Shown: one piece after another, positions 12,389 through 35,370 of the stretch
How positions within the stretch are numbered: position 1 is the first letter of the stretch
Layout: the number at the start of each line of letters is the position of its first letter
NCBI RefSeq assembly: GCF_013315695.1
Contig: NZ_CP054356.1
Origin: Escherichia coli
Lineage (GTDB): Bacteria; Pseudomonadota; Gammaproteobacteria; Enterobacterales; Enterobacteriaceae
DNA: 64,000 bases
Reading direction: 5' to 3' (one strand)
Translations under genes and position numbers: made by a program
The notes under the pieces: generated by a model
The model's input: the letters and a program-made list of their open reading frames with translations, nothing else
Database searches by the model: none
Told to the model about the DNA's origin: nothing

Positions 12389-12584
12389 ACACCCAATGAC
12401 ATGAGAAAAGCTGGATCTGATTCTCAAAATGCTGGGATACCCATCGAGATGGAGAACTCAGTCAATGTTCCATTCTTTCTGAAATATGTGTGGGGACACT
12501 GATCTGTCGGGAGCCGGATGCGGTAGTTCCGCAGGTCCGGTTCTGAGGAGGGGCCCGTCCGGGCAACCGGCGGGTCTACTCACC

Positions 12585-13148
12585 TCATCCCCCTACAACC
12601 ACTCCCATTCGTTTAAGTATTTTTAAACCTGCTTCCTGTGGTATCTTTATAGATAAGATCCTGTTTATCTCAGGATTTATATCGAGACCTTCTGTCATTG
12701 AAAAATCACAGTGAGACAAATCAGAATGTCTGAACTCTGTATTATTAAACTCCGAACCAGTAAAATCAGATTTACGAAGGTCTGTTTCCTCAAATAAACA
12801 ATCACGGAAGCGACAGGATAAAAAAATAGATTTCTGTAACCGTAAACTAATAAAATCAACAAATCTCAAATCACAATTTACAAGAGAAAAAGTACAGGGA
12901 AACATAATGTCTGCTGCATTTACTCCTTGTAATAAACAATCTTTGAATTCACAGTCAATAAGTTTAAAAAAATTAAGTTTTAAATTCTTTATTGAGCAGT
13001 TTACGAAGCGACATTTTTCGAACTCACAATCGCGAAAGTTAAAGTTGTCAAGCTGTATTCGTTCAAATATACAATTGTAATAATTTACACCTGATAATTC
13101 ACTTTCACTGAGGTGTCGTTTTGTGATTCTTTTTTCTATTATATCCAT
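12585..13148 (-). CDS. mcbG: Microcin B17 immunity protein McbG (pentapeptide-repeat DNA gyrase protector), 187 aa
   Basis: Pentapeptide-repeat-rich 187-aa protein at the last position of the mcbABCDEFG array. Confidence 0.85.
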   Translation of the reverse strand: MDIIEKRITKRHLSESELSGVNYYNCIFERIQLDNFNFRDCEFEKCRFVNCSIKNLKLNFFKLIDCEFKDCLLQGVNAADIMFPCTFSLVNCDLRFVDFISLRLQKSIFLSCRFRDCLFEETDLRKSDFTGSEFNNTEFRHSDLSHCDFSMTEGLDINPEINRILSIKIPQEAGLKILKRMGVVVGG

Positions 13149-13151
13149 GTG

Positions 13152-13883
13152 TCAGTCTCCTGTTCCCATAACTTCTTTAATAAATGCCTTTTCTGGAGTT
13201 GTTTCATTATTGGATTGAATAAAATCACTCATATCAGAATAACGATTTATACTATTTTTTGAAAGCATATAGAAGGGGATTTTATCTCTTGTTAATTCAT
13301 CAAAAATATGAGTTGAGAAAAATACCGTTTTCCCGTCAGCGGTGATCTTATTTATCAGTTCCCATAACATCATTCTGTACTGAATATCAATGCCTACAGT
13401 TGGTTCATCCAGTAAAAATAAACGGGCATTTTTGCAAAGCGTTAGCATCAAAGATATGATAAGCCAACGCTTCTCTCCATAACTTACCGTGTAAGTCCTT
13501 TTACGTCTTATTTTATCATAGCGAATGAAAAAATTATCATTCCATTTATGATTAAGCTCTGTCCATGCCTGTTTTTTAGTTAACTTATTGAAGCAGCAAA
13601 TCAAATCAAGAACCTCCTCATTCCTTAGTGTACCTGAAAGATTTATGACTTGAGGTAGACTTACTAATTCTCCACCAGAGAAATTTCGCTTGAGGGTCCC
13701 TTCATAATTACTGACTCCGCCCCTGATAAGGTTAAAAAGAGTGGTCTTCCCGGCTCCATTTTCTCCAAGCAGACCTATCAACTCTCCCTGCTCAATCTTA
13801 AGCGACAGATTATTGAAAACAGGGGGTAAATTTACTTTATATGAAAAGCTCAGAGAGTTGATTTCTAAAAGAGGTATGGTCAT
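13152..13883 (-). CDS. mcbF: Microcin B17 export ABC transporter ATP-binding protein McbF
   Basis: Walker A motif GENGAGKTT and ABC signature region; operon position. Confidence 0.85.
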   Translation of the reverse strand: MTIPLLEINSLSFSYKVNLPPVFNNLSLKIEQGELIGLLGENGAGKTTLFNLIRGGVSNYEGTLKRNFSGGELVSLPQVINLSGTLRNEEVLDLICCFNKLTKKQAWTELNHKWNDNFFIRYDKIRRKRTYTVSYGEKRWLIISLMLTLCKNARLFLLDEPTVGIDIQYRMMLWELINKITADGKTVFFSTHIFDELTRDKIPFYMLSKNSINRYSDMSDFIQSNNETTPEKAFIKEVMGTGD

Positions 13884-14605
13884 TGAGAACTCCAGACTGG
13901 CTCAGTTTTGAAGGTTAGTGCTGAAATAATACTTATGATTAACATTATACTATAGAAAAATATCGTCATCAGAGACAACTCCTGGTCTGACTGGAGTATT
14001 GTAGAATAGATGGCGATAGGATTAACCTGATTTATCCAGTAAACGATCCCCTCATTATATTTTAATGATACAATTCCTGATACCATACAGACAGTTATTA
14101 ATACAGAATAGATAGTGCTGGCTGTTTGGAATGTGACTCTGAACGATGCCATGAAAGTGAGTGAAACCATCATAAATGCATTTATGTATATCGATTTTAA
14201 AATAATCATTACTATTTGATAATCTGGACTTGCCTGGAATCCTGTTAGTACGACTAAAATGAAAAAAAACACATACAAAATAGACATGATAAGTGAGGCT
14301 ATTAATTGAGAACGAATAAATAATAGTCGACCATCCATATTATGCACGAAGGTAGCAATAAAACCACTTTCTCTTCTTCCGACCAGATACAGACAGTAAT
14401 TAAACAGAACAACAGAAAAAGAAATGTAGCCTACAAACCATGATATTTGTTTTCCGAGCCATGCTGTATCACCATAATGAAGTTCAATTTCATTGAAATG
14501 AAGGAAAAAGAACAACACTGTAGGTGACATAATTGTCCATATTAAGCTGAAAGGGGTTCTGATTTGTTCCATCAGAAAAATTATCGCCATTTTTAATGTA
14601 ACCAT
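13880..14605 (-). CDS. mcbE: Microcin B17 export permease McbE, 241 aa
   Basis: Polytopic hydrophobic protein, start overlapping the mcbF neighbour; operon position. Confidence 0.85.
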   Translation of the reverse strand: MVTLKMAIIFLMEQIRTPFSLIWTIMSPTVLFFFLHFNEIELHYGDTAWLGKQISWFVGYISFSVVLFNYCLYLVGRRESGFIATFVHNMDGRLLFIRSQLIASLIMSILYVFFFILVVLTGFQASPDYQIVMIILKSIYINAFMMVSLTFMASFRVTFQTASTIYSVLITVCMVSGIVSLKYNEGIVYWINQVNPIAIYSTILQSDQELSLMTIFFYSIMLIISIISALTFKTEPVWSSQ

Positions 14606-14614
14606 TTGTTATCC

Positions 14615-15805
14615 TTATGGGAATGGTACCATCTTTGATTCTCTGACTTTAATACCGTCCCCGGTATGGTAAATTTTATTATTAATGTTTATTGCACCTG
14701 AGTTATTCATATGAAGGAAAAAATCAGGGCTTACTATTTTTGTGTACCAGACAAGGCTGTTACTTACTCTTTCCCTGGCATAGTAAACAAAAATATTATC
14801 AGAAATTTGTTGAAGATAGTTTAATAAATTTGTGTCTGACGTAATATTTTCCTCAAGCGTTAACTTGACATCATCAGACAGTAGTACCGTATTTTCACAC
14901 AAATCCGTAAACGACTCGTACTTGTTGCATGACATAAAGTGACGCTGGTAACTATCAATAATGTCATCATCAGTATAACCGCCAATAAGAAAGTTGTGCA
15001 GGCATATATACGATTGCCACAATTCCACTACGGATTTACAAAGTGCTTTTTTCAGACTATTAGCATAGGATAATCCGGTACTGTATTTTATTCGACTGAT
15101 TTTGTTTTTTGTGCCATACAGGGTTAGTACTGCGTGTCCAGGAGCTCCGGGCAGGGTGATATCGAAAATCCTGATATCTCCTTCTGACCTGAGAGCCAGT
15201 AAAATCTCATCTATATGATTTATGCCTGTTACTATTTCACTGGATATTTCAGTATTGGCTTTTCCCTGTAACCAGTAAAGAAGGAGGGACTGTCTCTCCA
15301 TAAATTCACACAAGGAACCTTCTATGGCATCGTTCAAACTACCATGAAAGCTACATCCGCATGTATCTCTGTCAGGATAAAATTTCAGATCATCTGCAGC
15401 GGTTATATTGTCGAGTGCAATTATGACTGCAGGTATTTCTTGTTGTTCAAGGCTAAACAGATTAAAGGCTCTGACCGTTTTAAATTTATGGGTTATGATT
15501 TCATCGCGGGTCAGTGATGAGATCTGAAAAAATGCTTCGGTAAAAGCCTTTGCAGCAGATGGAGGCATCATCTCATATAATGTTTTCTGACCACCGGTGA
15601 CTATCTCATTAAAAAAATGACGGCGTTCAAAATATTCACCTATTGCCCCCTGAATTGACTTCAGAGTTTCACCGGCCGCGCTGGCTGGTGTAATACGCTC
15701 ATAGTCCCATATCTGAGAAAACGTTGGCATATTTCTGTTCAGTTTTGGACTCATGGCCATTGTGGCCGGCCATGCGGACATAAGGTTACTGTAGACATTT
15801 ATCAT
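14615..15805 (-). CDS. mcbD: Microcin B17 synthetase McbD (YcaO-type cyclodehydratase), 396 aa
   Basis: Size and position match McbD in the canonical operon. Confidence 0.85.
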   Translation of the reverse strand: MINVYSNLMSAWPATMAMSPKLNRNMPTFSQIWDYERITPASAAGETLKSIQGAIGEYFERRHFFNEIVTGGQKTLYEMMPPSAAKAFTEAFFQISSLTRDEIITHKFKTVRAFNLFSLEQQEIPAVIIALDNITAADDLKFYPDRDTCGCSFHGSLNDAIEGSLCEFMERQSLLLYWLQGKANTEISSEIVTGINHIDEILLALRSEGDIRIFDITLPGAPGHAVLTLYGTKNKISRIKYSTGLSYANSLKKALCKSVVELWQSYICLHNFLIGGYTDDDIIDSYQRHFMSCNKYESFTDLCENTVLLSDDVKLTLEENITSDTNLLNYLQQISDNIFVYYARERVSNSLVWYTKIVSPDFFLHMNNSGAININNKIYHTGDGIKVRESKMVPFP

Positions 15806-16604
15806 CGTTTACATCTCCAAAAAACTGAACGATCAGTGGCGCTACAGTCCTCTGATCCAGATTCATTGTTTTTGCTACGTATGAATCGGTATATCCCGCC
15901 CATACCCGGTTTTTCAGTCCTATTTGATCTGCAACCAATACTGCGTTCTGATACATCGAACCTGTTTCCATTAAGGCCATCCGGTATCCTCTGTAGCGAT
16001 ATTTGAACAAAGCTTTTTCAAAAATAATGCAATAGACGAGAGCAAAATGGGGTTTACCAAGACGTTCCGAATCCCCACCGGACAGGCTTCGGTAGAGTGA
16101 CTGAGTATTACATGTAGCAACAGGTTCCAGTGCCTGACTTAGCGGCAGGTAGTGATAAACATTAGTTCCTGCCTGCCAGTTTTCTGTATTTTCAGATAAT
16201 CTGCATAAAAAAACTTCAATCGGGTACAATGCCCCCCCAGAAGGATAAGGTCTTCTTACAGAGCCAGGATCAGGTGAGCTGAATGCATTGACTAATAACT
16301 TTTCAATAGTACGAATGGAAAGTTTATTTTTGTCGCAAAAGTTTATTCCTGATGGGAGCCTTTCACGACTAAAATTATGTGATGAGGATATGTTTATTAC
16401 GGAGCTGAAACCTGGCCTGAAGAGAACTTCTTTATTTTCAAATTTCTCCAGATGGGCAAGAGGTACCGCGGACACGAAAGTTCGTTCAGCAAATTCGGGG
16501 AGGGAAGCAAAGTTACCTCTGACATGAAAATCTTTAACAATGGCCAGAACTTCAGGATCTGTGTAATGCGTTACTTCCACTAAAGAGAGTTCGTGTTTTG
16601 ACAT
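15786..16604 (-). CDS. mcbC: Microcin B17 synthetase McbC (FMN-dependent dehydrogenase), 272 aa
   Basis: Size and position match McbC. Confidence 0.85.
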   Translation of the reverse strand: MSKHELSLVEVTHYTDPEVLAIVKDFHVRGNFASLPEFAERTFVSAVPLAHLEKFENKEVLFRPGFSSVINISSSHNFSRERLPSGINFCDKNKLSIRTIEKLLVNAFSSPDPGSVRRPYPSGGALYPIEVFLCRLSENTENWQAGTNVYHYLPLSQALEPVATCNTQSLYRSLSGGDSERLGKPHFALVYCIIFEKALFKYRYRGYRMALMETGSMYQNAVLVADQIGLKNRVWAGYTDSYVAKTMNLDQRTVAPLIVQFFGDVNDDKCLQ

Positions 16605-16605
16605 G

Positions 16606-17493
16606 TTATCTCTCCAGACAGCTGCAAGCCTGCCAGTGAATTACCGGCTCTTTACATAAAATACAGGTGATTAAATCAGCGCTAACAGATGACATAAAGT
16701 TATCGACATGACTTTTAACCAGTGAAGTACCTGTCAACTCCTGAAGTCGCCGTTTTATTAAATGATAGCTGAATCCTCTTTCTGATTCGCCTAAAGCCAA
16801 TGCTGGTAGTGTCATTTGGTATTTTTTCAGTAACTGAAGTAAGTTTGCCCAGGACATTTCGTTACGTCTGAAGCTTTTTTCTTCCCTGCTCAGCCATCTC
16901 TCTATATGACAAAAATGGCAGGGAGTACCAAGATCAGGTGAATATACTCCATCTATCCTGAATGACTCCTTTAGGTAGTAGCTTTGGATGAAGGCAACAC
17001 CAGGGTTACTTTCAAATTTTGAATAGATTCTTTTTACAATGTCTGAATGATAGTTTTCGAGATGTAACCAGATTAGTGTTGAATCGCTCACATTAATATT
17101 ATTATCTTTTATATCAATGATATGAGAAACAAAAACACCATCAGATTTCCATTGTTCCCGGGCATTACTGAAAAGATGTGGAACATCGCTTATTATGACT
17201 GAGTTTACCCAGAGAGGTGATGTTTTCGTTTTATTTATCACGCCTGTGGTAATAAGAAACTCTTTGCCCTTGTCTTTATCAATAAGCGATTCGTCCAGTA
17301 GTTTATCAAGGAGGTATTCAGAAATAATACCCTGTTTGGATCGTAGGCTTTCGAGTACTTTTTTCATTCCCTCATGTGTAATGTCTACTGAAGAAATGTA
17401 GGTAATAAGCAGGGTCTTTGTATTTCTGGAAATTATCTCAAACGGCAGAATATTGATCATATCTTTTCCTTTTTTAATATCAGGGAGCACCAT
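16606..17493 (-). CDS. mcbB: Microcin B17 synthetase McbB (zinc-binding scaffold/cyclodehydratase subunit), 295 aa
   Basis: Size and position match McbB; Cys-containing C-terminus. Confidence 0.85.
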   Translation of the reverse strand: MVLPDIKKGKDMINILPFEIISRNTKTLLITYISSVDITHEGMKKVLESLRSKQGIISEYLLDKLLDESLIDKDKGKEFLITTGVINKTKTSPLWVNSVIISDVPHLFSNAREQWKSDGVFVSHIIDIKDNNINVSDSTLIWLHLENYHSDIVKRIYSKFESNPGVAFIQSYYLKESFRIDGVYSPDLGTPCHFCHIERWLSREEKSFRRNEMSWANLLQLLKKYQMTLPALALGESERGFSYHLIKRRLQELTGTSLVKSHVDNFMSSVSADLITCILCKEPVIHWQACSCLER

Positions 17494-20429: not shown

Positions 20430-20600
20430 TTATAAAACTCCTTATGGTGTTTTTTTTGGTGTTTGTTTGGGTGTGTTTTGGGTTTTAAGTGGGTTTATTT
20501 GTCAAGTTTACCCCATTTTAACTATCAATCAATGATTATTTGTCTTGTTTTGGTGTTTTATTGGGTTTGGAGTGGGTTGTTTTTGGGTTTTGTTTGGCGG
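20430..20600. promoter_or_regulatory. parC: parC centromere/promoter region with tandem gggttt/ggtgttt-type iterons
   Basis: Immediately upstream of parM: repeated short units ttttggtgtttgtttgggtgtgttttgggtttt...ttggtgttttattgggtttggagtgggttgtttttgggttttgtttgg. Confidence 0.55.
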
Positions 20601-20610
20601 ATAACAAAAG

Positions 20611-20920
20611 ATGTCGCCGGGCTCCTCTTTTTACTGCGCCGGCTGACGCGGCGCGGCAGGAACGCTGCCTGTGGTCAGTGTCCCGCGTCCGGCCGGGCAC
20701 GGGACGGGCGCTTTTACCGCTCCCGGCTGGCGTCGGTGACAGTGTACGCCAGCCCGTCGCCCTTTTCTGATGAGCGCCCTTCAAGCCGCTTTCGCGGCAT
20801 AGCCTTGCCGTCAAAAAGACGACGGCTGCGGTATTCCACGGTCGGCCTGACCCGTTACCGGGCGCGGTGAACAGCCCACAGGCAGCGGGGAACGGGCGCC
20901 ACAGGGGCGCCCTCCCGATG
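20611..20920. repeat. Leading-region repeat family R1, copy a (about 310 bp, GC-rich, hairpin-rich)
   Basis: Near-identical to 21916-22230; each copy sits directly upstream of a plus-strand ORF; a short partial match occurs at 24473-24510. Confidence 0.5.
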
Positions 20921-20940
20921 CTCCTGTGAGGATAATTCCC

Positions 20941-21867
20941 ATGCCAAACTGGTGCTCGAATCGTATGTATTTTTCTGGTGAACCGGCACAGATCGCTGAG
21001 ATTAAACGACTGGCCAGCGGTGCAGTCACACCGTTTTATCGCCGCGCCACAAATGAAGGTATTCAGCTGTTTCTGGCCGGAAGTGCCGGACTTCTGCAGA
21101 CCACTGAAGATGTGCGGTTTGAACCATGCCCCGGACTGACGGCTGCCGGACGTGGTGTTTTATCGCCGGAGAATATCACGTTCACCCGCTGGCTGAAGCA
21201 CCTGCAGGACGGTGTACTGCTGGATGAGCAAAACTGCCTGATGCTGCATGAACTCTGGCTGCAGAGCGGTACTGGACAGCGTCGCTGGGAAGGGTTACCG
21301 GATGATGTCAGGGAAACTATCACTGTGCATTTCACCGCAAAAAGAGGTGACTGGTGTGACATCTGGGGTAACGAGGATGTATCGGTGTGGTGGAACCGTC
21401 TGTGTGACAACGTACTGCCGGAAAAAACCATGCCGTTTGACCTGCTGACGGTTTTGCCGACCCGCCTGGATATTGAAGTGAATGGCTTTAACGGCGGTGT
21501 TCTGAACGGTGTTCCTTCTGCATATCACTGGTATACAGAACGGTATGGCGTGAAGTGGCCTTGTGGGTATGACCTGAATATCAGCAGTCAGGGGGAAAAC
21601 TTCATTCAGGTAGATTTCGACACGCCGTGGTGTCAGCCGGAAAGCGACGTTGTTGCAGAATTAAGCCGCCGTTTCGGCTGCACGCTGGAGCACTGGTACG
21701 CCGAACAGGGCTGCAATTTCTGTGGCTGGCAGTTGTATGAGCGCGGAGAGCTTGTTGATGTGCTGTGGGGGGAACTGGAATGGTCTTCCCCGACAGATGA
21801 CGATGAGCTGCCGGAAGTCACCGGACCTGCGTGGATAGTCGACAATGTGGCGCATTATGGCGGATGA
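20941..21867 (+). CDS. Conserved leading-region protein of unknown function, about 308 aa (N-terminus MPNWCSNRMYFSGEP)
   Basis: ORF with a GAGG Shine-Dalgarno about 10 nt upstream of the ATG at 20941; family not confidently recognised. Confidence 0.55.
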   Translation: MPNWCSNRMYFSGEPAQIAEIKRLASGAVTPFYRRATNEGIQLFLAGSAGLLQTTEDVRFEPCPGLTAAGRGVLSPENITFTRWLKHLQDGVLLDEQNCLMLHELWLQSGTGQRRWEGLPDDVRETITVHFTAKRGDWCDIWGNEDVSVWWNRLCDNVLPEKTMPFDLLTVLPTRLDIEVNGFNGGVLNGVPSAYHWYTERYGVKWPCGYDLNISSQGENFIQVDFDTPWCQPESDVVAELSRRFGCTLEHWYAEQGCNFCGWQLYERGELVDVLWGELEWSSPTDDDELPEVTGPAWIVDNVAHYGG

Positions 21868-21915
21868 AGTATGACGGAGACGGGCGGGCAACCGCCCGTT
21901 TCTTTTCCGGTAAAG

Positions 21916-22230
21916 GATGTCGCCGTGCTCCTCTTTTTACTGCGCCGGCTGACGCGGCGCGGCATAAACGCTGCCTGTGGTCAGTGTCCCGCGTCCGGTG
22001 GGCACGGGACGGGCGCTTTTACCGCTCCCGGCTGGCGTCGGTGACAGTGTACGCCAGCCTGTCGCCCTTTTCTGATGAACGCCCTTCAAGCCGCTTTCGC
22101 GGCATAGCCTTGCCGTCAGAAAGACGACGGCTGCGGTATTCCACGGTCGGCCTGACCCGTTACCGGACGCGGTGAACAGCCCACAGGCAGCGGGGAACGG
22201 GCACCACAGGGGTGCCCTCCCGGTGCCCTC
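21916..22230. repeat. Leading-region repeat family R1, copy b
   Basis: See copy a; ends at the AAGGAG RBS of the methyltransferase gene. Confidence 0.5.
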
Positions 22231-22250
22231 TGTAAGAGAAGGAGTTTTGT

Positions 22251-22934
22251 ATGTCCCGTTTTGTCCTCGGTAACTGCATCGATGTTATGGCCCGTATTCC
22301 TGATAACGCCATTGATTTCATACTGACTGACCCGCCGTACCTCGTCGGTTTCCGTGACCGTTCCGGGCGCACCATTGCCGGTGATGTTAATGATGACTGG
22401 CTGCAACCTGCCAGCAATGAGATGTACCGCGTACTCAAAAAAGACGCGCTGATGGTCAGCTTCTACGGCTGGAACCGTGTCGATCGCTTTATGGCCGCCT
22501 GGAAACGCGCCGGATTCAGCGTGGCAGGGCACCTCGTGTTCACCAAAAACTACACATCCAAATCTGCGTATGTCGCGTACCGTCACGAATGCGCTTACAT
22601 CCTGGCAAAGGGCAGTCCGGCCCGGCCCCGTAACCCTCTGCCGGATGTGCTGGGCTGGAAATATTCAGGCAATCGTCATCACCCGACGGAAAAGCCCGTT
22701 ACCAGCCTGCAACCACTGATTGAGAGCTTCACACATCCGAACGCGATTGTGCTGGACCCGTTTGCAGGCAGCGGCTCAACCTGCGTCGCTGCCCTCCAGT
22801 CCGGACGCCGGTATATCGGTATCGAGCTGCTTGAACAGTATCACCGTGCCGGACAGCAACGACTGGCCGCCGTGCAACGGGCCATGCAGCAGGGGGCCGC
22901 GAATGATAACTGGTTTGAACCGGAGGCTGCGTAA
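22251..22934 (+). CDS. Orphan DNA N6-adenine methyltransferase (DPPY motif), 227 aa
   Basis: Motif ILTDPPYLVGF and a C-terminal DPFAGSGST SAM-binding motif (permuted order typical of beta-class N6/N4 MTases); no adjacent restriction endonuclease gene. Confidence 0.8.
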   Translation: MSRFVLGNCIDVMARIPDNAIDFILTDPPYLVGFRDRSGRTIAGDVNDDWLQPASNEMYRVLKKDALMVSFYGWNRVDRFMAAWKRAGFSVAGHLVFTKNYTSKSAYVAYRHECAYILAKGSPARPRNPLPDVLGWKYSGNRHHPTEKPVTSLQPLIESFTHPNAIVLDPFAGSGSTCVAALQSGRRYIGIELLEQYHRAGQQRLAAVQRAMQQGAANDNWFEPEAA

Positions 22935-23648: not shown

Positions 23649-24419
23649 ATGAATGAAATGCTGAATGCACTGATTTATCGCCACGCCAGCAACCTGTTGC
23701 TGGCGCAGGGCTGGCCGGAAGAGACGGATGTTGACCAGCGTAACCCGAAGTATCCGGGCTGGATCAGCATTTACGTGCGGCTGGATGCGCCCCGGCTGGC
23801 GACGTTACTTATCAAGCGTCACGGCGGCGTACTGCCGCCGCTCCTGGCCTCTGCCATTCAGAAACTGACCGGAACCGGAGCGGAACTTGTTCTGTCCGGC
23901 AGTCAGTGGCAGTCGCTGCCGGTACTTCCGGCAGACGGAACGCAGGTGTCTTTCCCGTATGCCGGTGAGTGGCTGGCAGAGGACGAAATCAGGGCCGTTC
24001 TTGGTGCGGTACGCGATGCAGTATGCAGTGTCAGTTACCAGGTGGCAGAAGATGCGCGGCGTATCCGTGCGGCGCTGACCACCACCGGTCAGACGTTGCT
24101 GACCCGCCAGACGCGCCGCTTTCGCCTGGTGGTGAAGGAAAGCGATCACCCCTGCTGGCTCGATGAAGACGACGAAAACCTGCCCGTGGTGCTCGATGCC
24201 ATCCTGAACCGGGGCGCTCGTTTTTCGTCGGTGGAAATGTATCTGGTCAGTGAGTGTGTGGAGCATATCCTGTCCAGTGGGCTGGCCTGCGATATGCTGC
24301 GTATACCGGATGAACCGCCCCGCCGCTGGTTTGACCGTGGTGTTCTGCGGGAGGTGGTCCGGGAAGCCCGGAACGAAATCCGCAGCATGGCGGATGCCCT
24401 GGCAAAAATCCGGAAATGA
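23649..24419 (+). CDS. Hypothetical leading-region protein, 256 aa
   Basis: Uninterrupted ORF in the same orientation as neighbouring leading-region genes; no recognised motif. Confidence 0.5.
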
Positions 24420-24566
24420 TGACGCTGGCGGGGAAAAATCTCCGCCTTTTCCAGTCGGTCCCCGGAAAGAGCAAAAGGATGTCGCCGCAGGCTCCTCTTT
24501 ACCCGGCCATGTGGGGCATGGCCTTGTGGGTTTTCAGTTATGTGGCCTCAGCGTCGTGTGCGGGCT

Positions 24567-24792
24567 GTGCCGTGCCTCCATCGTAGCCGGGCTTCTGCGG
24601 GCGGGTTGCAAGGTAAGGTGAACCGCTGCGGTCACCCGGTCCCTCCTTCCCGTCTGCCGTGATTTTCCGGTCGTTCACCCGCTCAGATTTCGCGGTCTCA
24701 CCCTTCAACTCCCGTCAGCCGTGCGCGTCAGGCTGCGGCTTCCCTTGCGCCCTTGCAACCCTGCAGGCCCGGCAAAGATGGAGGCACGGCAC
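24567..24792. other. Long imperfect inverted repeat (about 45-bp arms at 24567-24612 and 24751-24792) upstream of klcA; candidate ssDNA hairpin (ssi/Frpo-like)
   Basis: Arm 1 gtgccgtgcctccatcgtagccgggcttctgcgggcgggttgcaagg and reverse complement of arm 2 gtgccgtgcctccatctttgccgggcctgcagggttgcaagg, read directly. Confidence 0.5.
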
Positions 24793-24834
24793 CGCCCGGT
24801 GTCGCGGAATATGTGAACAACGGAGGAAAACATC

Positions 24835-25260
24835 ATGCAATATGCGAAACCTGTCACTCTGAACGTTGAAGAGTGTGACCGTCTCTCCTTTCTGCCTTAC
24901 CTGTTTGGCAACGATTTTCTGTATGCCGAGGCGTATGTGTACGCGCTGGCGCAAAAAATGATGCCGGAATATCAGGGAGGCTTCTGGCATTTCATCCGCC
25001 TGCCGGACGGTGGCGGTTACATGATGCCGGATGGCGACCGTTTTCATCTGGTCAACGGTGAAAACTGGTTTGACCGCACTGTGAGTGCTGATGCCGCAGG
25101 TATCATCCTGACTTCCCTTGTGATTAACCGCCAGTTGTGGCTGTACCACGACAGCGGGGATGCGGGACTGACACACCTTTACCGGATGCGCGATGCGCAG
25201 TTGTGGAGCCACATCGAATTTCACCCCGAATGCAATGCGATTTACGCGGCACTTGACTGA
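24835..25260 (+). CDS. klcA: Antirestriction protein KlcA/ArdB family, 141 aa
   Basis: Translation [53 protein letters not shown]... matches recalled KlcA/ArdB proteins of F-like and IncP plasmids. Confidence 0.8.
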
Positions 25261-25917: not shown

Positions 25918-26109
25918 TACAGGGCAGGCGGTGGAGGCCGCCTGTCAGCCCGCGCGAAAACCCCTGGCAGGCTGGCGCCTGCCGGAAGGGAAGCGGGCCA
26001 CGCTGGCGCGTCGCCCGTTACCCTTCCCGTTTGTGATGTGTCCGGAATGTTTTTTCCTGATGTTATGTTTCTGTGGTTACTGTTCTTCTTCTTCCTCTTC
26101 TTTCCGTTC

Positions 26110-26650
26110 CTCTCCTGTTTATGCCTTTTCCGGGCGTCCCCCTGGCGGGGCGGGCTGTCGTGAACGGAGCCAGCGGAGCTGTCTCCGCCCTGGCGGGCTT
26201 CCATCCCTGACGCAAAACCCCGGGTTTGCAGCGACCGGAACGGTCGCGCCACCCCTGTCGCGCCGTGGCCTGCGCTCCCGGCATCCCGGCAAAAAGACGC
26301 CGGGATGTAAGGAGCAACGCCGTTTCGCAAACCGCGCTTCACGTCGTTGCAGCGGGTCCCTGCTCATTGCCTGCCGGGTGCCACACACCCGTATGAGTCC
26401 CTGTCGCCGGGGGCATAGACAGCCACAACCTGCCGCACTGACTGTCCAGGGTAAATGAACAGCCCACAAAATTTTTTACCTAAAACCCGGTAAAAAATTT
26501 TGCGTTCTGCCCAGGACAGGTGCGTCAGGCCGTGGCAGTGATGCCCCTTGCGGCGAAGGTTCTCAAACGGGTGAAGTTCATACCACAGGGAATACAGCAG
26601 CAGGTTCCCGCGAAACGTCAAAACCGCGGCTCCCGAAACTCAACGGGTGA
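26110..26650. repeat. Leading-region repeat family R2 (Frpo/ssi-like ssDNA promoter candidate), copy 1
   Basis: About 540 bp alignable to 29390-29935 and 34800-35370; shared core ggtaaatgaacagcccacaaaattttttacc.aaaacccggtaaaaaattttgcgttctgc...gtcaaaaccgcggctcccgaaactcaac; preceded by a TTC/CTC-rich simple tract. Confidence 0.5.
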
Positions 26651-26884
26651 TGTTCTTTAAAAATCAGGATTTATTTCAGGCTCCGGCAATACGCATTTAT
26701 GTGTTCTGTCAGTCATCCGGCTGGCAGGTAATGAAAACGCAGGAACAGAAGGAGGAAAACACCGGAAAGCGTCAGATGCAGATATGAAAAAAAGCAGGTC
26801 AGGGACCTGCTTAATCCACGCCGTAAGAATTGTGCGACCAATTTTGACGGCATTGTTAACCAATTTGTCATAAGGAATCCATTT

Positions 26885-27115
26885 ATGACTGTAAGCATTG
26901 TTTCACCTTCCGCAGCGGCTGTAAAGCCCCGCCGTCATCCCCGTTTCAGACGCGAAGACATCCCCGCGCCGGAACTTGACCCCGTGCTGAAAGCCTTCGG
27001 GCGACACATTGCCCGGAGTTTTCGCCGGGGGCGTGGTGTACACATCCCCGCCATGAAAAACACGGCCTTCGGGCAGGTGCTCCGCACACTCGAACTGAAA
27101 CGCGCTTTTAACTGA
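26885..27115 (+). CDS. Small basic hypothetical protein, 76 aa
   Basis: Arg-rich ORF downstream of R2 copy 1. Confidence 0.3.
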   Translation: MTVSIVSPSAAAVKPRRHPRFRREDIPAPELDPVLKAFGRHIARSFRRGRGVHIPAMKNTAFGQVLRTLELKRAFN

Positions 27116-27166: not shown

Positions 27167-28528
27167 ATGACATTAGCAGCAATCACCATGACCGCCCCGG
27201 AAGCCGCCAGCCCTGTGCAGATGTACCGCGCGACCTACTCACCGGATGACAACAAACTGCGCCTGTATGCCGTGTCACGTCTTGACCCGGAGACGTATAA
27301 AAAAGTGCATGATGCCGGTTTTCGCTGGGCACCAGAACAGGCGCTGTTTGTGGCTCCAGCCTGGACACCGGGCCGGGAAGACGTGCTCCTCTCACTTGCC
27401 GGAGAGATTGAGGATGAAGACAGCACGCTCGCTGAACGTCAGGAAGCACGGGCGGAGCGGTTTACCGGATACAGCGGAAAGCGGGCCAGTGAATCCGCAC
27501 AGGCACTTGATGAAGTGGAAAGACTGGCCGCGATGATCCCGCCCGGTCAGCCCATTCTTGTGGGGCATCACAGCGAACGCCGCGCCCGTCGTGATGCGCA
27601 GCGTATTGAAAACGGCATGAAACGTGCCGTGATGCTCTTTGAACGTGCGGAATACTGGGAAGAACGTGCGCGGTCGGCACTGCTTCACGCGAAGTATAAA
27701 GAACGTCCGGACGTTCGCTGGCGTCGTATCAAAAAAATCGAAGCTGATTTGCGCAAGGCTGAAAAGACCATCGCACAGTCGCAGAAATATCTGACGATGT
27801 GGCGGGCTGAATCGCTGGATCTGAATATGGCAAAACTCATCAGCAGTCATGACCATATCAGCGCCTGTTTCCCGCTGGATACGTATCCGCGCCCGGCAGA
27901 AAAAAGCCAGTATGAAGGAAGTCGATCGTTATGGTCGGCCCTGGATGATGACATCATCACCACGGAGCAGGCCCGCGAAATTGCGATCCGCTGTCATGAA
28001 CGGCAGATTCAGCATCAGCAACGCTGGGTTAACCACTATCAGAACCGCCTGATCTATGAGCGTGCCATGCTGGACGAAAGCGGCGGCGTGGTTACCCGGA
28101 CACAGGATTTTGAGCCGGGCGGACAGGTTTTCAGCCGGGGCGAGTGGCTGACCATCATCCGCGTGAACAAAAGCAACGGGGCGGTGAGTTCAGTCACAAC
28201 GCCGAATTACAGTTTTCTCGGGTACAGCGGCACGATGAAAGTGACGCCCGATCGCATCACGGACTACAAAGCACCATCGGCAGAAGAGGCTGCCGTCGCC
28301 AGCCAGGCCGCGAAGCGTCCGCCGGTAGTCAACTATCCGGGGGAAGGTTTCCGGGAAATGACAAAGGCGCAGTGGGCCGCCCTGCCCCGGGACTGTAAGG
28401 CCGTGCGCAGTGTGGCAGAGACAGAAGACCACGGGGCATACCGCTACCGCCGCACAATGGACAATAATTTCCGCCTGGTGAATGTGTATATCACCGACAT
28501 GAAAATCACGGAAATCCCGCAGAAATAA
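27167..28528 (+). CDS. Conserved leading-region protein of unknown function, 453 aa
   Basis: Long uninterrupted ORF with a GGAGAA RBS; no catalytic motif recognised. Confidence 0.6.
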   Translation: MTLAAITMTAPEAASPVQMYRATYSPDDNKLRLYAVSRLDPETYKKVHDAGFRWAPEQALFVAPAWTPGREDVLLSLAGEIEDEDSTLAERQEARAERFTGYSGKRASESAQALDEVERLAAMIPPGQPILVGHHSERRARRDAQRIENGMKRAVMLFERAEYWEERARSALLHAKYKERPDVRWRRIKKIEADLRKAEKTIAQSQKYLTMWRAESLDLNMAKLISSHDHISACFPLDTYPRPAEKSQYEGSRSLWSALDDDIITTEQAREIAIRCHERQIQHQQRWVNHYQNRLIYERAMLDESGGVVTRTQDFEPGGQVFSRGEWLTIIRVNKSNGAVSSVTTPNYSFLGYSGTMKVTPDRITDYKAPSAEEAAVASQAAKRPPVVNYPGEGFREMTKAQWAALPRDCKAVRSVAETEDHGAYRYRRTMDNNFRLVNVYITDMKITEIPQK

Positions 28529-29138: not shown

Positions 29139-29389
29139 TGACTCCGGGCAGGCGGGAGGATAAATGCCCGTCTGCCCGCGCCGGGAAAAGACCGCGCGCC
29201 GGTGGCGCTGAAAGGGGCCGCGCTTACGCGCCGCCCCTTTCATTACGCGGACGTTCTGCTGTGGGCTTCTGTCTTTTCAGACCTGTCATTTGCCTGTTAC
29301 TGATGATGTTGTTGTTCCTGCTACTGCTACTGCTACTGCTACTGCTACTGTTCTTCTTTTTTCTGCTGCTCTGATTACTGTCTGTTTTG

Positions 29390-29935
29390 TTGTTCTCCTG
29401 CTTATGCCTTTTCCGGGCGTCCCCCTGGCGGGGCGGGCTGTCGTGAACGGAGCCAGCGGAGCTGTCTCCGCCCTGGCGGGCTTCCATCCCTGACGCAAAA
29501 ACCCGGGTTTGCAGCGACCGGAACGGTCGCGCCACCCTTGTCGCGCCGTGGCCTGCGCTCCCGGCATCCCGGCAAAAGACGCCGGGATGTAAGGAGCAAC
29601 GCTGTTTCGCAAACCGCGCTTCACGTCGTTGCGGCGGGTCCCTGCCCGTTGTTCTGTCCGGTGCCATTCACCTGTTTAAGCCCCTGTCGCCGGGGGCTGA
29701 TACAGCCACAACCTGCCGCACTGACTGTCCAGGGTAAATGAACAGCCCACAAAATTTTTTACCCAAAACCCGGTAAAAAATTTTGCGTTCTGCCCAGGAC
29801 AGGTGCGTCAGGCCGTGGCAGTGATGCCCCATGCGGCGAAGGTTCTCAAACAGGTGATGGTGAATACCGGAGGGAACAAAAGGCAGGTCCCCGCAAAACG
29901 TCAAAACCGCGGCTCCCGAAACTCAACAGATGATG
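29390..29935. repeat. Leading-region repeat family R2 (Frpo/ssi-like), copy 2, directly upstream of ssb; preceded by a (CTGCTA)5 microsatellite at 29318-29350
   Basis: See copy 1; microsatellite read directly. Confidence 0.5.
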
Positions 29936-29968
29936 GGGGCTGAAAACATCAACAGAAGGAGACACATC

Positions 29969-34469: not shown

Positions 34470-34799
34470 CAACCTGGAGGCGGGCGCAGGCCCGCCTTTT
34501 CAGGGCTGATGCTGGTCTGACTGCACTGAAGCGCCTTTATAAAGGGGCTGCTGGTTCGCCGGTGGCCCCTTTCTCCTTGCTGGCATTGTACGGGCATGAA
34601 CAACCAGACTGCCAGGAAGGCCGTTTCCCTCCGGGAACGGGGATGAACGTGCGCCTGCGGCGCCCGTTCTTTTCCCCCGCCTTCTCTGTTTATGACTTAC
34701 CAGAAATCACATCACCTTCCCTTTGATTATTCTCTTTTTCCTCCTGCTCTGACTCTGATTACTGCTCTGACTCTGATTACTGCTGCCCTGATTATTGTC

Positions 34800-35370
34800 T
34801 GTTTTGTTGTTCTCCTGCTTATGCCTTTTCCGGGCGTCCCCCTGGCGGGGCGGGCTGTCGTGAACGGAGCCAGCGAAGCTGTCTCCGCCCTGGCGGGCTT
34901 CCATCCCTGACGCAAAACCCCCGGCTTGCAGCGACTGTTCCGGTCGCGCCGCCTCTGTCGCGCCGTGGCCTGCGCTCCTGGCATCCCGGCAAAAGGCCGC
35001 CGGGATGTAAGGCGCAACGCCGTTTCGCAAACCGCGCTTCACGTCGTTGCGGCGGGTCCCTGCCCGTTGTTGTGTCCGGTGCCATTCACCTGTTTAAGCC
35101 CTGTCGCCGGGGCTGATAGTTGATACAACCTGCCGCACTGACTGTCCGGTAAAATGAACAGCCCACAAAATTTTTTACCCAAAACCCGGTAAAAATTTTG
35201 CGTTCTGCTCCAGACAGGTGCGTCAGGCCGTGGCAGGTGATGCCCCTGCGGCGAAGGTTCTCAAACAGGTGATGGTGAATACCGGAGGAACAAAAGGCAG
35301 GTCCCCGCAAAACGTCAAAACCGCGGCTCCCGAAACTCAACAGATGATGGGGGCTGAAAACATCAGATAC
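34800..35370. repeat. Leading-region repeat family R2 (Frpo/ssi-like), copy 3; preceded by a tandem 18-bp unit (ctgactctgattactgct x2) at 34748-34783
   Basis: See copy 1; ends at the RBS (caggagga) of the ORF at 35381. Confidence 0.5.

Follow-up and report, generated by a model that had tools for sequence, protein, structure and literature searches.

In F-type transfer the strand enters with its oriT-generated 5' end first and the tra genes last. Class 1 of the promoters that act on single-stranded DNA (ssDNA) reportedly consists of the Frpo/ssi elements associated with the 1997 work of Masai and Arai, namely Frpo1 and Frpo2 of F and ssi1-3 of ColIb-P9.

A second class is described by Wen et al. 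(NAR 2025; PMC12672017), who place class 2 promoters upstream of klcA and ardA in pESBL and report that these elements were discovered by a homology-independent hairpin scan. The same paper states that the pESBL elements are induced early in conjugation, that 5' RACE on early transconjugants confirmed their starts, that F has conserved class 2 elements as well, and that class 2 activity is tied to the single-stranded phase. RNA-seq enrichment has also been reported for the F hairpin in early transconjugants. According to a preprint (bioRxiv 10.64898/2026.01.09.698686), the F copy is named ssp2 and controls yfgB, and its deletion brings transfer down 5- to 36-fold against EcoKI and EcoGIII. Complementary-strand synthesis stalls at ssp2, with the stalled 3' end at the end of the stem; UvrD resolves this stall, and deletion of ssp2 speeds conversion. 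Placing ssp3 in the position of ssp2 does not rescue transfer against EcoKI, and ssp3 is reported there to be without roadblock activity in F.

Here we describe a large inverted repeat in front of the klcA/ardB antirestriction gene in a 64,000-nucleotide stretch of Escherichia coli DNA (the window), for which a sequence-only reading had proposed early expression of klcA from the incoming strand. That idea was right but not new, as the element is already known: its family was published in late 2025 and early 2026. We consider it highly probable that the klcA repeat is this plasmid's copy of the class 2 ssDNA promoter, ssp2, and that it works as such.

Results

The window is a 100% match to the E. 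coli plasmid pSCU-175-2 (IncFIA/FIC, MOBF) and contains an IncFIA/FIC leading region, whose plus-strand genes include a DNA methylase gene, klcA, ssb, psiB, hok/sok and a DUF932 gene; further along, at about 38300, are the traJ 5' UTR and FinP. Because the leading-region genes are on the plus strand and run toward oriT, the transferred strand (T strand) is the minus strand and is their template. A microcin B17 operon (about 12584-17492, minus strand) is annotated in the identical plasmid upstream of the leading region; it comprises mcbB to mcbE-like genes, YcaO and SagB-type enzymes and a pentapeptide-repeat immunity protein. In addition, T/G-rich units with a period of about 11 nt at 20439-20601 adjoin a divergently placed parM and its partner gene, and this stretch looks like the parC-type centromere of a ParMRC partition system.

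The first gene behind the hairpin, and the first it would serve, is klcA/ardB (24835-25260, plus strand). It encodes a protein of 141 aa that matches Pfam Antirestrict PF03230 (ArdB/KlcA; E = 1.8e-26) and is 97.9% identical to F YfgB and 97.2% identical to pESBL KlcA. The base of the stem ends at 24798 and the klcA ATG stands 36 nt further on, at 24835; the intervening leader (24799-24834, plus strand) carries the Shine-Dalgarno sequence GGAGG at 24822-24826 and is highly conserved over 24799-24820 (diversity 0.0055). On the other side of the unit, just 3' of the stop codon of a yffB-like gene (23649-24419), we read from the sequence a terminator-like hairpin (24427-24450, plus strand; GGCGGGGA-aaaa-TCTCCGCC then TTTT) that would insulate the klcA unit from the upstream operon. 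The scan for terminator-like sites omitted this hairpin, its T run being only 4. A consensus scan of 24350-24900 for a conventional duplex sigma-70 promoter returned none on either strand.

A repeat search identified outer arms at 24561-24592 and 24767-24798 (32 nt, 91% complementary) and an inner pair at 24603-24613 and 24751-24761 (11 nt, perfect). Together these form a composite left arm of 53 nt (24561-24613) and a composite right arm of 48 nt (24751-24798), which are the 3' and the 5' arm, respectively, on the T strand (minus), and which enclose an interior of 137 nt (24614-24750) that is predicted to be branched. The arms of about 45 bp, some 140 bp apart, that had been claimed for this locus are thereby borne out, with the true stem base lying 6 nt outside each end of the limits first given. 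A folding energy calculation on ssDNA, which had been proposed as a check, gave a strong fold on both strands of 24540-24820: the plus strand reached -72.6 kcal/mol (z = -5.3) and the minus strand -75.8 kcal/mol (z = -4.8), and in each case 0 of 200 shuffles folded as well. The inverted repeat is therefore real and not a product of chance. Within the interior, the small hairpin ggtgaaccgc/gcggtcacc pointed out by the sequence-only reading is indeed present, at 24617-24636 with a one-base bulge, but it is not kept across variants, since its pairs are broken in 58-59 of the 107 distinct forms described below. We rejected it as a functional part for this reason; it is probably incidental and variant-specific.

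We repeated the published hairpin scan on the T strand of 17000-41000 using a 300-nt sliding fold, a 10-nt step and DNA parameters. Against a background with a mean of -45 kcal/mol (sd 14), only six troughs fell below -75 kcal/mol, the published cut-off, each of them in an intergenic stretch ahead of a gene or ORF on the plus strand. The klcA hairpin is one of them (24490-24859), with a T-strand energy of -85.0 kcal/mol. Two others are class 3 copies (20580-20979, -94.9 kcal/mol; 21840-22269, -94.0 kcal/mol), and three are Frpo copies (26070-26689, -97.5 kcal/mol; 29370-29959, -95.6 kcal/mol; 34930-35339, -82.4 kcal/mol).

The three Frpo copies, each of about 600 nt (26071-26668, 29354-29951 and 34771-35365), are 84-94% identical to Frpo1/Frpo2 of F; the copy at 29354-29951 corresponds to F Frpo2, before ssb, and that at 34771-35365 to F Frpo1. 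The copy at 26071-26668 is additional and precedes an operon that is absent from that place in F and comprises a small ORF (26885), a DUF3560 gene (27167-28528) and a SAM-dependent methyltransferase gene. Opposite the start of this small ORF, at 26789-26890 on the minus strand, lies a borderline match to the Rfam family AS-pc01 (antisense to pHK01_035; 79.4 bits against a gathering score of 79). The two class 3 copies (20606-20930 and 21912-22236) both match the pESBL M.EcoGIX hairpin and are 95% identical to each other. The second, which lies before a DNA methylase gene (22251), shows 99% identity to that pESBL promoter, and the first precedes a DUF1281 gene (20965). Before the DUF1281 gene, F, pESBL and two other plasmids have only the last 41 nt of the class 3 copy; a query made of the iterons, the first class 3 copy and the DUF1281 start was at least 80% covered in at least 1559 plasmid records.

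The klcA unit spans 347 nt (24474-24820) and is 88% identical to the region upstream of yfgB in F (locus L002, 6395-6741) and 87-88% identical to two stretches of pESBL-EA11 (locus L004, 7011-7356 and 13956-14303), which precede klcA and ardA. Over the whole intergenic region upstream of klcA, mean column identity with the yffB-yfgB intergenic region of F is 93%. The unit therefore agrees with class 2 in its homology with the hairpins before pESBL klcA and ardA and F yfgB, in its place in the leading region with the T strand as template and an antirestriction gene directly downstream, and in a 300-nt fold beyond the published energy cut-off. As a homologue of the published element in a fitting orientation, it lends support by analogy to the proposal that an ssDNA stem-loop would give early klcA expression from the incoming strand. 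Loss of the structure in related plasmids had been named as evidence against that proposal; the class 2 hairpins of F and pESBL have the same architecture of a stem with a branched interior. The accompanying claim that the hairpin acts independently of the R1 and R2 repeats was mostly right: BLAST found no similarity to the unit elsewhere in the window, Frpo included, and the part that did not stand concerns a boundary motif of about 29 nt that the unit has in common with the class 3 repeats at 20606 and 21912.

To describe the variation of the module, we examined its spread among plasmids. The unit is present, at 88-100% identity, in at least 5000 plasmid records, frequently at 2 to 4 sites in the same record, and the hosts of these plasmids include Escherichia, Klebsiella, Salmonella, Shigella and others. 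Plasmid loci were pooled with those from a metagenome scan anchored on exact 15-mers in both sides of the lower stem, which yielded 134 full-length copies; these represent 107 distinct forms with 83-100% identity to the window. Retrieval by exact 15-mers forces the invariance of those lower-stem bases in the metagenome set; the same invariance was seen in 16 copies retrieved by BLAST, without a forcing anchor. A separate scan of genome contigs with a 22-mer from the interior returned 9 loci, several of them in evidently contaminated MAGs, and was of little use for diversity. Near-identical copies of the module (L005, L006, L007, L009 and L010) in assemblies labelled Streptomyces morookaense, Oscillibacter, Oscillospiraceae and Collinsella most likely reflect contamination or mis-binning.

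All of the 132 copies with enough downstream DNA to be assessed, out of 134, stand before klcA (100) or ardA (32), and their distance to the start codon is constant. As a neutral benchmark we used the four-fold degenerate sites of klcA, at which diversity is 0.165; the middle stem, which no anchor forced, and the leader are far more conserved than these sites. These observations bear on whether the palindrome might be a functionless product of chance or a relic, for example the remnant of a mobile element. Duplication of the module within plasmids, as klcA and ardA copies, and its sharp boundary motif could be read that way. Set against this are the 200 shuffles of which none folded as well, the unit's presence in at least 5000 plasmid records, the conservation of middle stem and leader, the start-codon distance held in 132 of 132 copies, and the experimental phenotypes of the orthologues, and we regard the relic explanation as effectively refuted.

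Folded one sequence at a time, the T strand was more stable than its complement in 15 of 15 and in 107 of 107 variants, by a mean of 7.6 kcal/mol. This advantage comes from several stem positions that pair as G-T on the T strand but are A-C mismatches on the sense strand, and it points to selection on the transferred strand rather than on the mRNA-sense strand. A column-based count of pairing over the 107 variants gave 90.7% versus 90.3% on the two strands, with the upper stem misaligned, and per-sequence folding energies were therefore preferred over column counts for the strand comparison.

The strand asymmetry weighs on two other explanations. One is a role at the RNA level, in which the repeat would form a leader structure, a terminator or an RNase III site on read-through transcripts and control klcA in that way. 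The plus strand folds well too (z = -5.3), an RNA with both arms would be strongly structured, and the terminator-like hairpins upstream are modest. However, it is the minus strand, not the mRNA-sense strand, that folds better in all 107 variants, an mRNA starting inside the right arm would be without the left arm, no Rfam family was found over the klcA hairpin at the gathering score or at E = 1, and published activity is tied to the single-stranded phase; we find an RNA-level role very unlikely. The other is that of a duplex operator or cruciform site at which a plasmid repressor silences klcA in established cells. Although genes of the leading region are not expressed in donors and operators can take the form of long inverted repeats, an arm separation of 137 nt is atypical for a dimer operator, no duplex promoter was detectable that could be repressed, and neither the folding asymmetry of the strands nor the asymmetric conservation of the arms described below is expected of a duplex site. 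This makes an operator even less probable than a function in RNA.

In the 16 copies retrieved by BLAST, the lower 20 bp of the stem and a 7-bp GCCGGGC/GCCCGGC segment are essentially invariant. The upper stem differs between the type found in the window and the F type on both arms, yet pairs in both. Furthermore, one upper-stem pair covaries within the window type (T-A in 23 forms, A-T in 5), with a few mismatched intermediates or recombinants. RNAalifold counted 0 compensatory pairs on the 16 copies; their lower stem does not vary, and indels put the upper stems of the two variants out of register. Since the variants are closely related (83-100% identical), the evidence from covariation is thin.

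The lower 20 bp and the GCCGGGC/GCCCGGC segment are separated by an internal loop of 4 x 4 bases. The loop bases on the T-strand 3' arm, together with the two bases that follow, spell TA(A/C)GAT in all 107 variants and retain T-12, A-11 and T-7 of the sigma-70 -10 consensus; in the window this -10-like hexamer is TACGAT (24585 to 24580, minus strand, left arm). The bases opposite the hexamer (24774-24777) occur in five forms, AAAA, CTTT, CGTA, AGTA and CTTA, and are the most variable positions of the unit, with a diversity of 0.47 compared to 0.12 on the hexamer side. Because one arm is fixed in sequence and the other is free, we assign the T-strand 3' arm as the putative non-template strand and the right arm as the putative template. 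This choice of arm comes from conservation alone, and the asymmetry would be expected if a non-template -10 element lay in a pre-weakened duplex. We rejected a promoter on the other arm, aimed into the loop, since no part of the unit varies more than the one AT-rich stretch on that arm.

Judging by the spacing to the -10-like hexamer, transcription would start near A24786 and produce a 49-nt leader. The -35 candidate is the palindrome TTGCAA on the left arm (24606-24611), a weak match with 4 of 6 consensus positions. The distance from TTGCA(A/T) to the hexamer is 20 nt in the window and 15 nt in F, neither of which is canonical, and the extra spacer bases bulge out from one arm in the window type and from the other arm in the F type. 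A sigma-70 consensus scan detected nothing at the klcA hairpin nor in a Frpo copy; being blind to the Frpo copy too, such a scan cannot place the boxes. In the loop of the window, T-12 and C-10 are mismatched and A-11 and G-9 are paired, whereas A-11, A-10 and G-9 are unpaired in F ssp2. The CTTT/TACGAT loop type is a common variant that accounts for 29 of the 107 distinct forms. Since this type closes two of the four loop positions that stay open in F, among them the -11 A, promoter strength and roadblock behaviour in the window variant may differ from those in F.

Diversity in the core of the interior is 0.037, about 4.5 times less than the 0.165 at klcA four-fold sites, which argues that the interior is more than a mere spacer. 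It contains a direct repeat, TCCCGTC(T/A)GCCGTG, at 24648 and 24710, 62 nt apart. At its 5' boundary the unit begins with the motif AAAGGATGTCGCCGcaGGCTCCTCTTTAC (24474-24502, plus strand; opening AAAGGATGTCGCCG..CTCCTCTTTAC). Homology between klcA and ardA copies begins at this motif, as it does for the pESBL ardA copy, and all duplicated copies start exactly there. The motif, of about 29 nt, also opens both class 3 repeats (20606-20634 and 21912-21940), which makes 2 matches where 0.02 were expected, and the form common to class 2 and class 3 is AA(A/G)GATGTCGCCG..CTCCTCTTT(TT)AC. It is followed by a small conserved hairpin (24505-24537, plus strand), GGCCATG-tgggg-CATGGCC then TTGTGGGTTTTCAG, whose pairs are invariant in 16 sequences and within which the scan listed a terminator-like site (24510-24528).

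The constrained interior, the shared boundary motif and a -10 pairing unlike that of F raise the possibility that the module is more than a promoter hairpin. We suggest only tentatively, and with some doubt, that the interior and the boundary motif (AAGGATGTCGCCG..CTCCTCTTTAC) are separate functional parts of the module. They could serve as a loading site for a protein or helicase, as a signal that halts transcription or DNA synthesis coming in on the single strand from the operon upstream, or as a determinant of roadblock strength. If this is true, promoter or roadblock strength could be set differently in each of the two common variants.

Discussion

We propose the following model for the klcA hairpin. 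During conjugation the minus strand of the window would enter the recipient alone, from oriT at about 38 kb, and the arms would fold onto each other to give a stem of about 50 bp that mimics a duplex promoter. Sigma-70 RNA polymerase would use the T-strand 3' arm as the non-template strand, with the -10 element TACGAT held in the partly mismatched internal loop and the weak -35 candidate TTGCAA further up the stem. Transcription would run from near A24786 on the opposite arm, out of the base of the stem and into klcA/ardB and the genes behind it, so that antirestriction protein could be made before the plasmid turns double-stranded and restrictable. By analogy with the published model for these promoters, synthesis of the complementary strand would remove the hairpin and transcription would stop. 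In F, according to the preprint (bioRxiv 10.64898/2026.01.09.698686), the hairpin halts complementary-strand synthesis at the stem base until UvrD acts, which prolongs single-stranded expression. Our own analysis covers homology, strand, fold, the pattern of conservation and gene association. Early induction, start sites, the deletion phenotype and the roadblock are those of the published orthologues, and we infer from them that the window variant would behave like that of F.

This behaviour in F raises the question of whether the main role of the element is structural, as a programmed, UvrD-resolved roadblock to complementary-strand synthesis that extends the time for which the leading region downstream stays single-stranded, promoter activity being secondary. 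The stall at the end of the F ssp2 stem, the faster conversion upon its deletion and the failure of the ssp3 swap against EcoKI all speak for such a role. At our own locus, the G+C-rich lower and middle stem is nearly invariant, and a promoter alone leaves the constraint on the interior unexplained. However, the upper stem and the -10 loop of the window variant differ from those of F, and the preprint calls the conservation of the delay in other plasmids unknown. Furthermore, a pure roadblock needs neither an invariant TA(A/C)GAT on one arm nor a fixed place before antirestriction genes. We see the case for a primarily structural role as evenly poised; a roadblock would complement the reading of the klcA hairpin as an ssDNA promoter rather than compete with it.

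Such hairpins set the speed at which an incoming resistance plasmid produces antirestriction protein, and hence which hosts are open to its establishment, and the module is common to at least 5000 sequenced enterobacterial plasmids. Beyond the available text of the class 2 and ssp2 papers, our results add that the transferred strand is always the better folder, that a -10-like hexamer is invariant on only one arm, that the module is tied exclusively to klcA and ardA in our sample, and that two common structural variants exist, which can be compared by experiment. The sequence-only reading had not anticipated a widespread, duplicated module that is also found before ardA, nor the replication roadblock in F. 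The remaining interest lies in the constrained interior, in the boundary motif common with class 3 and in a functional comparison of the two variants.

Among the known systems, Frpo resembles the klcA element as a T-strand hairpin of the leading region that forms a duplex-like promoter upstream of establishment genes and is lost on duplex conversion. The two differ in sequence and shape. No BLAST similarity links the klcA element to Frpo within the window despite the three Frpo copies there, and the klcA element, with a stem of about 50 bp and a branched interior of 137 nt, does not form the nearly fully paired rod of about 320 nt that is characteristic of Frpo; the Frpo copy at 29560-29960 folds as a continuous rod of -119.4 kcal/mol. 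They also appear to differ in action, as the preprint states that in F the Frpo transcripts prime complementary-strand synthesis, whereas ssp2 blocks it (bioRxiv 10.64898/2026.01.09.698686).

Class 3 (ssp3) is closer in layout, with a boundary motif, an arm of about 30 nt, an interior of about 165 nt, a second arm and a gene about 25-35 nt further on, and it has the opening motif AAGGATGTCGCCG..CTCCTCTTT in common with the klcA element. We found no clear BLAST homology between the klcA element and class 3 beyond this motif, and class 3, which in pESBL lies upstream of M.EcoGIX, drives a DNA methylase operon, unlike the klcA element.

The closest match is class 2/ssp2, to which the klcA element corresponds in homology over the full 347 nt, in its place before klcA/ardB, in strand, in a stem with a branched interior, in the invariant lower stem and in the -10-like hexamer. 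Within this likeness the window variant is distinct from F ssp2. Its hexamer is TACGAT in place of TAAGAT, with CTTT in place of AAAA on the opposite side, its upper stem is rebuilt around a TTGCAA core with the bulge on the other arm, and its interior has the extra small hairpin at 24617-24636.
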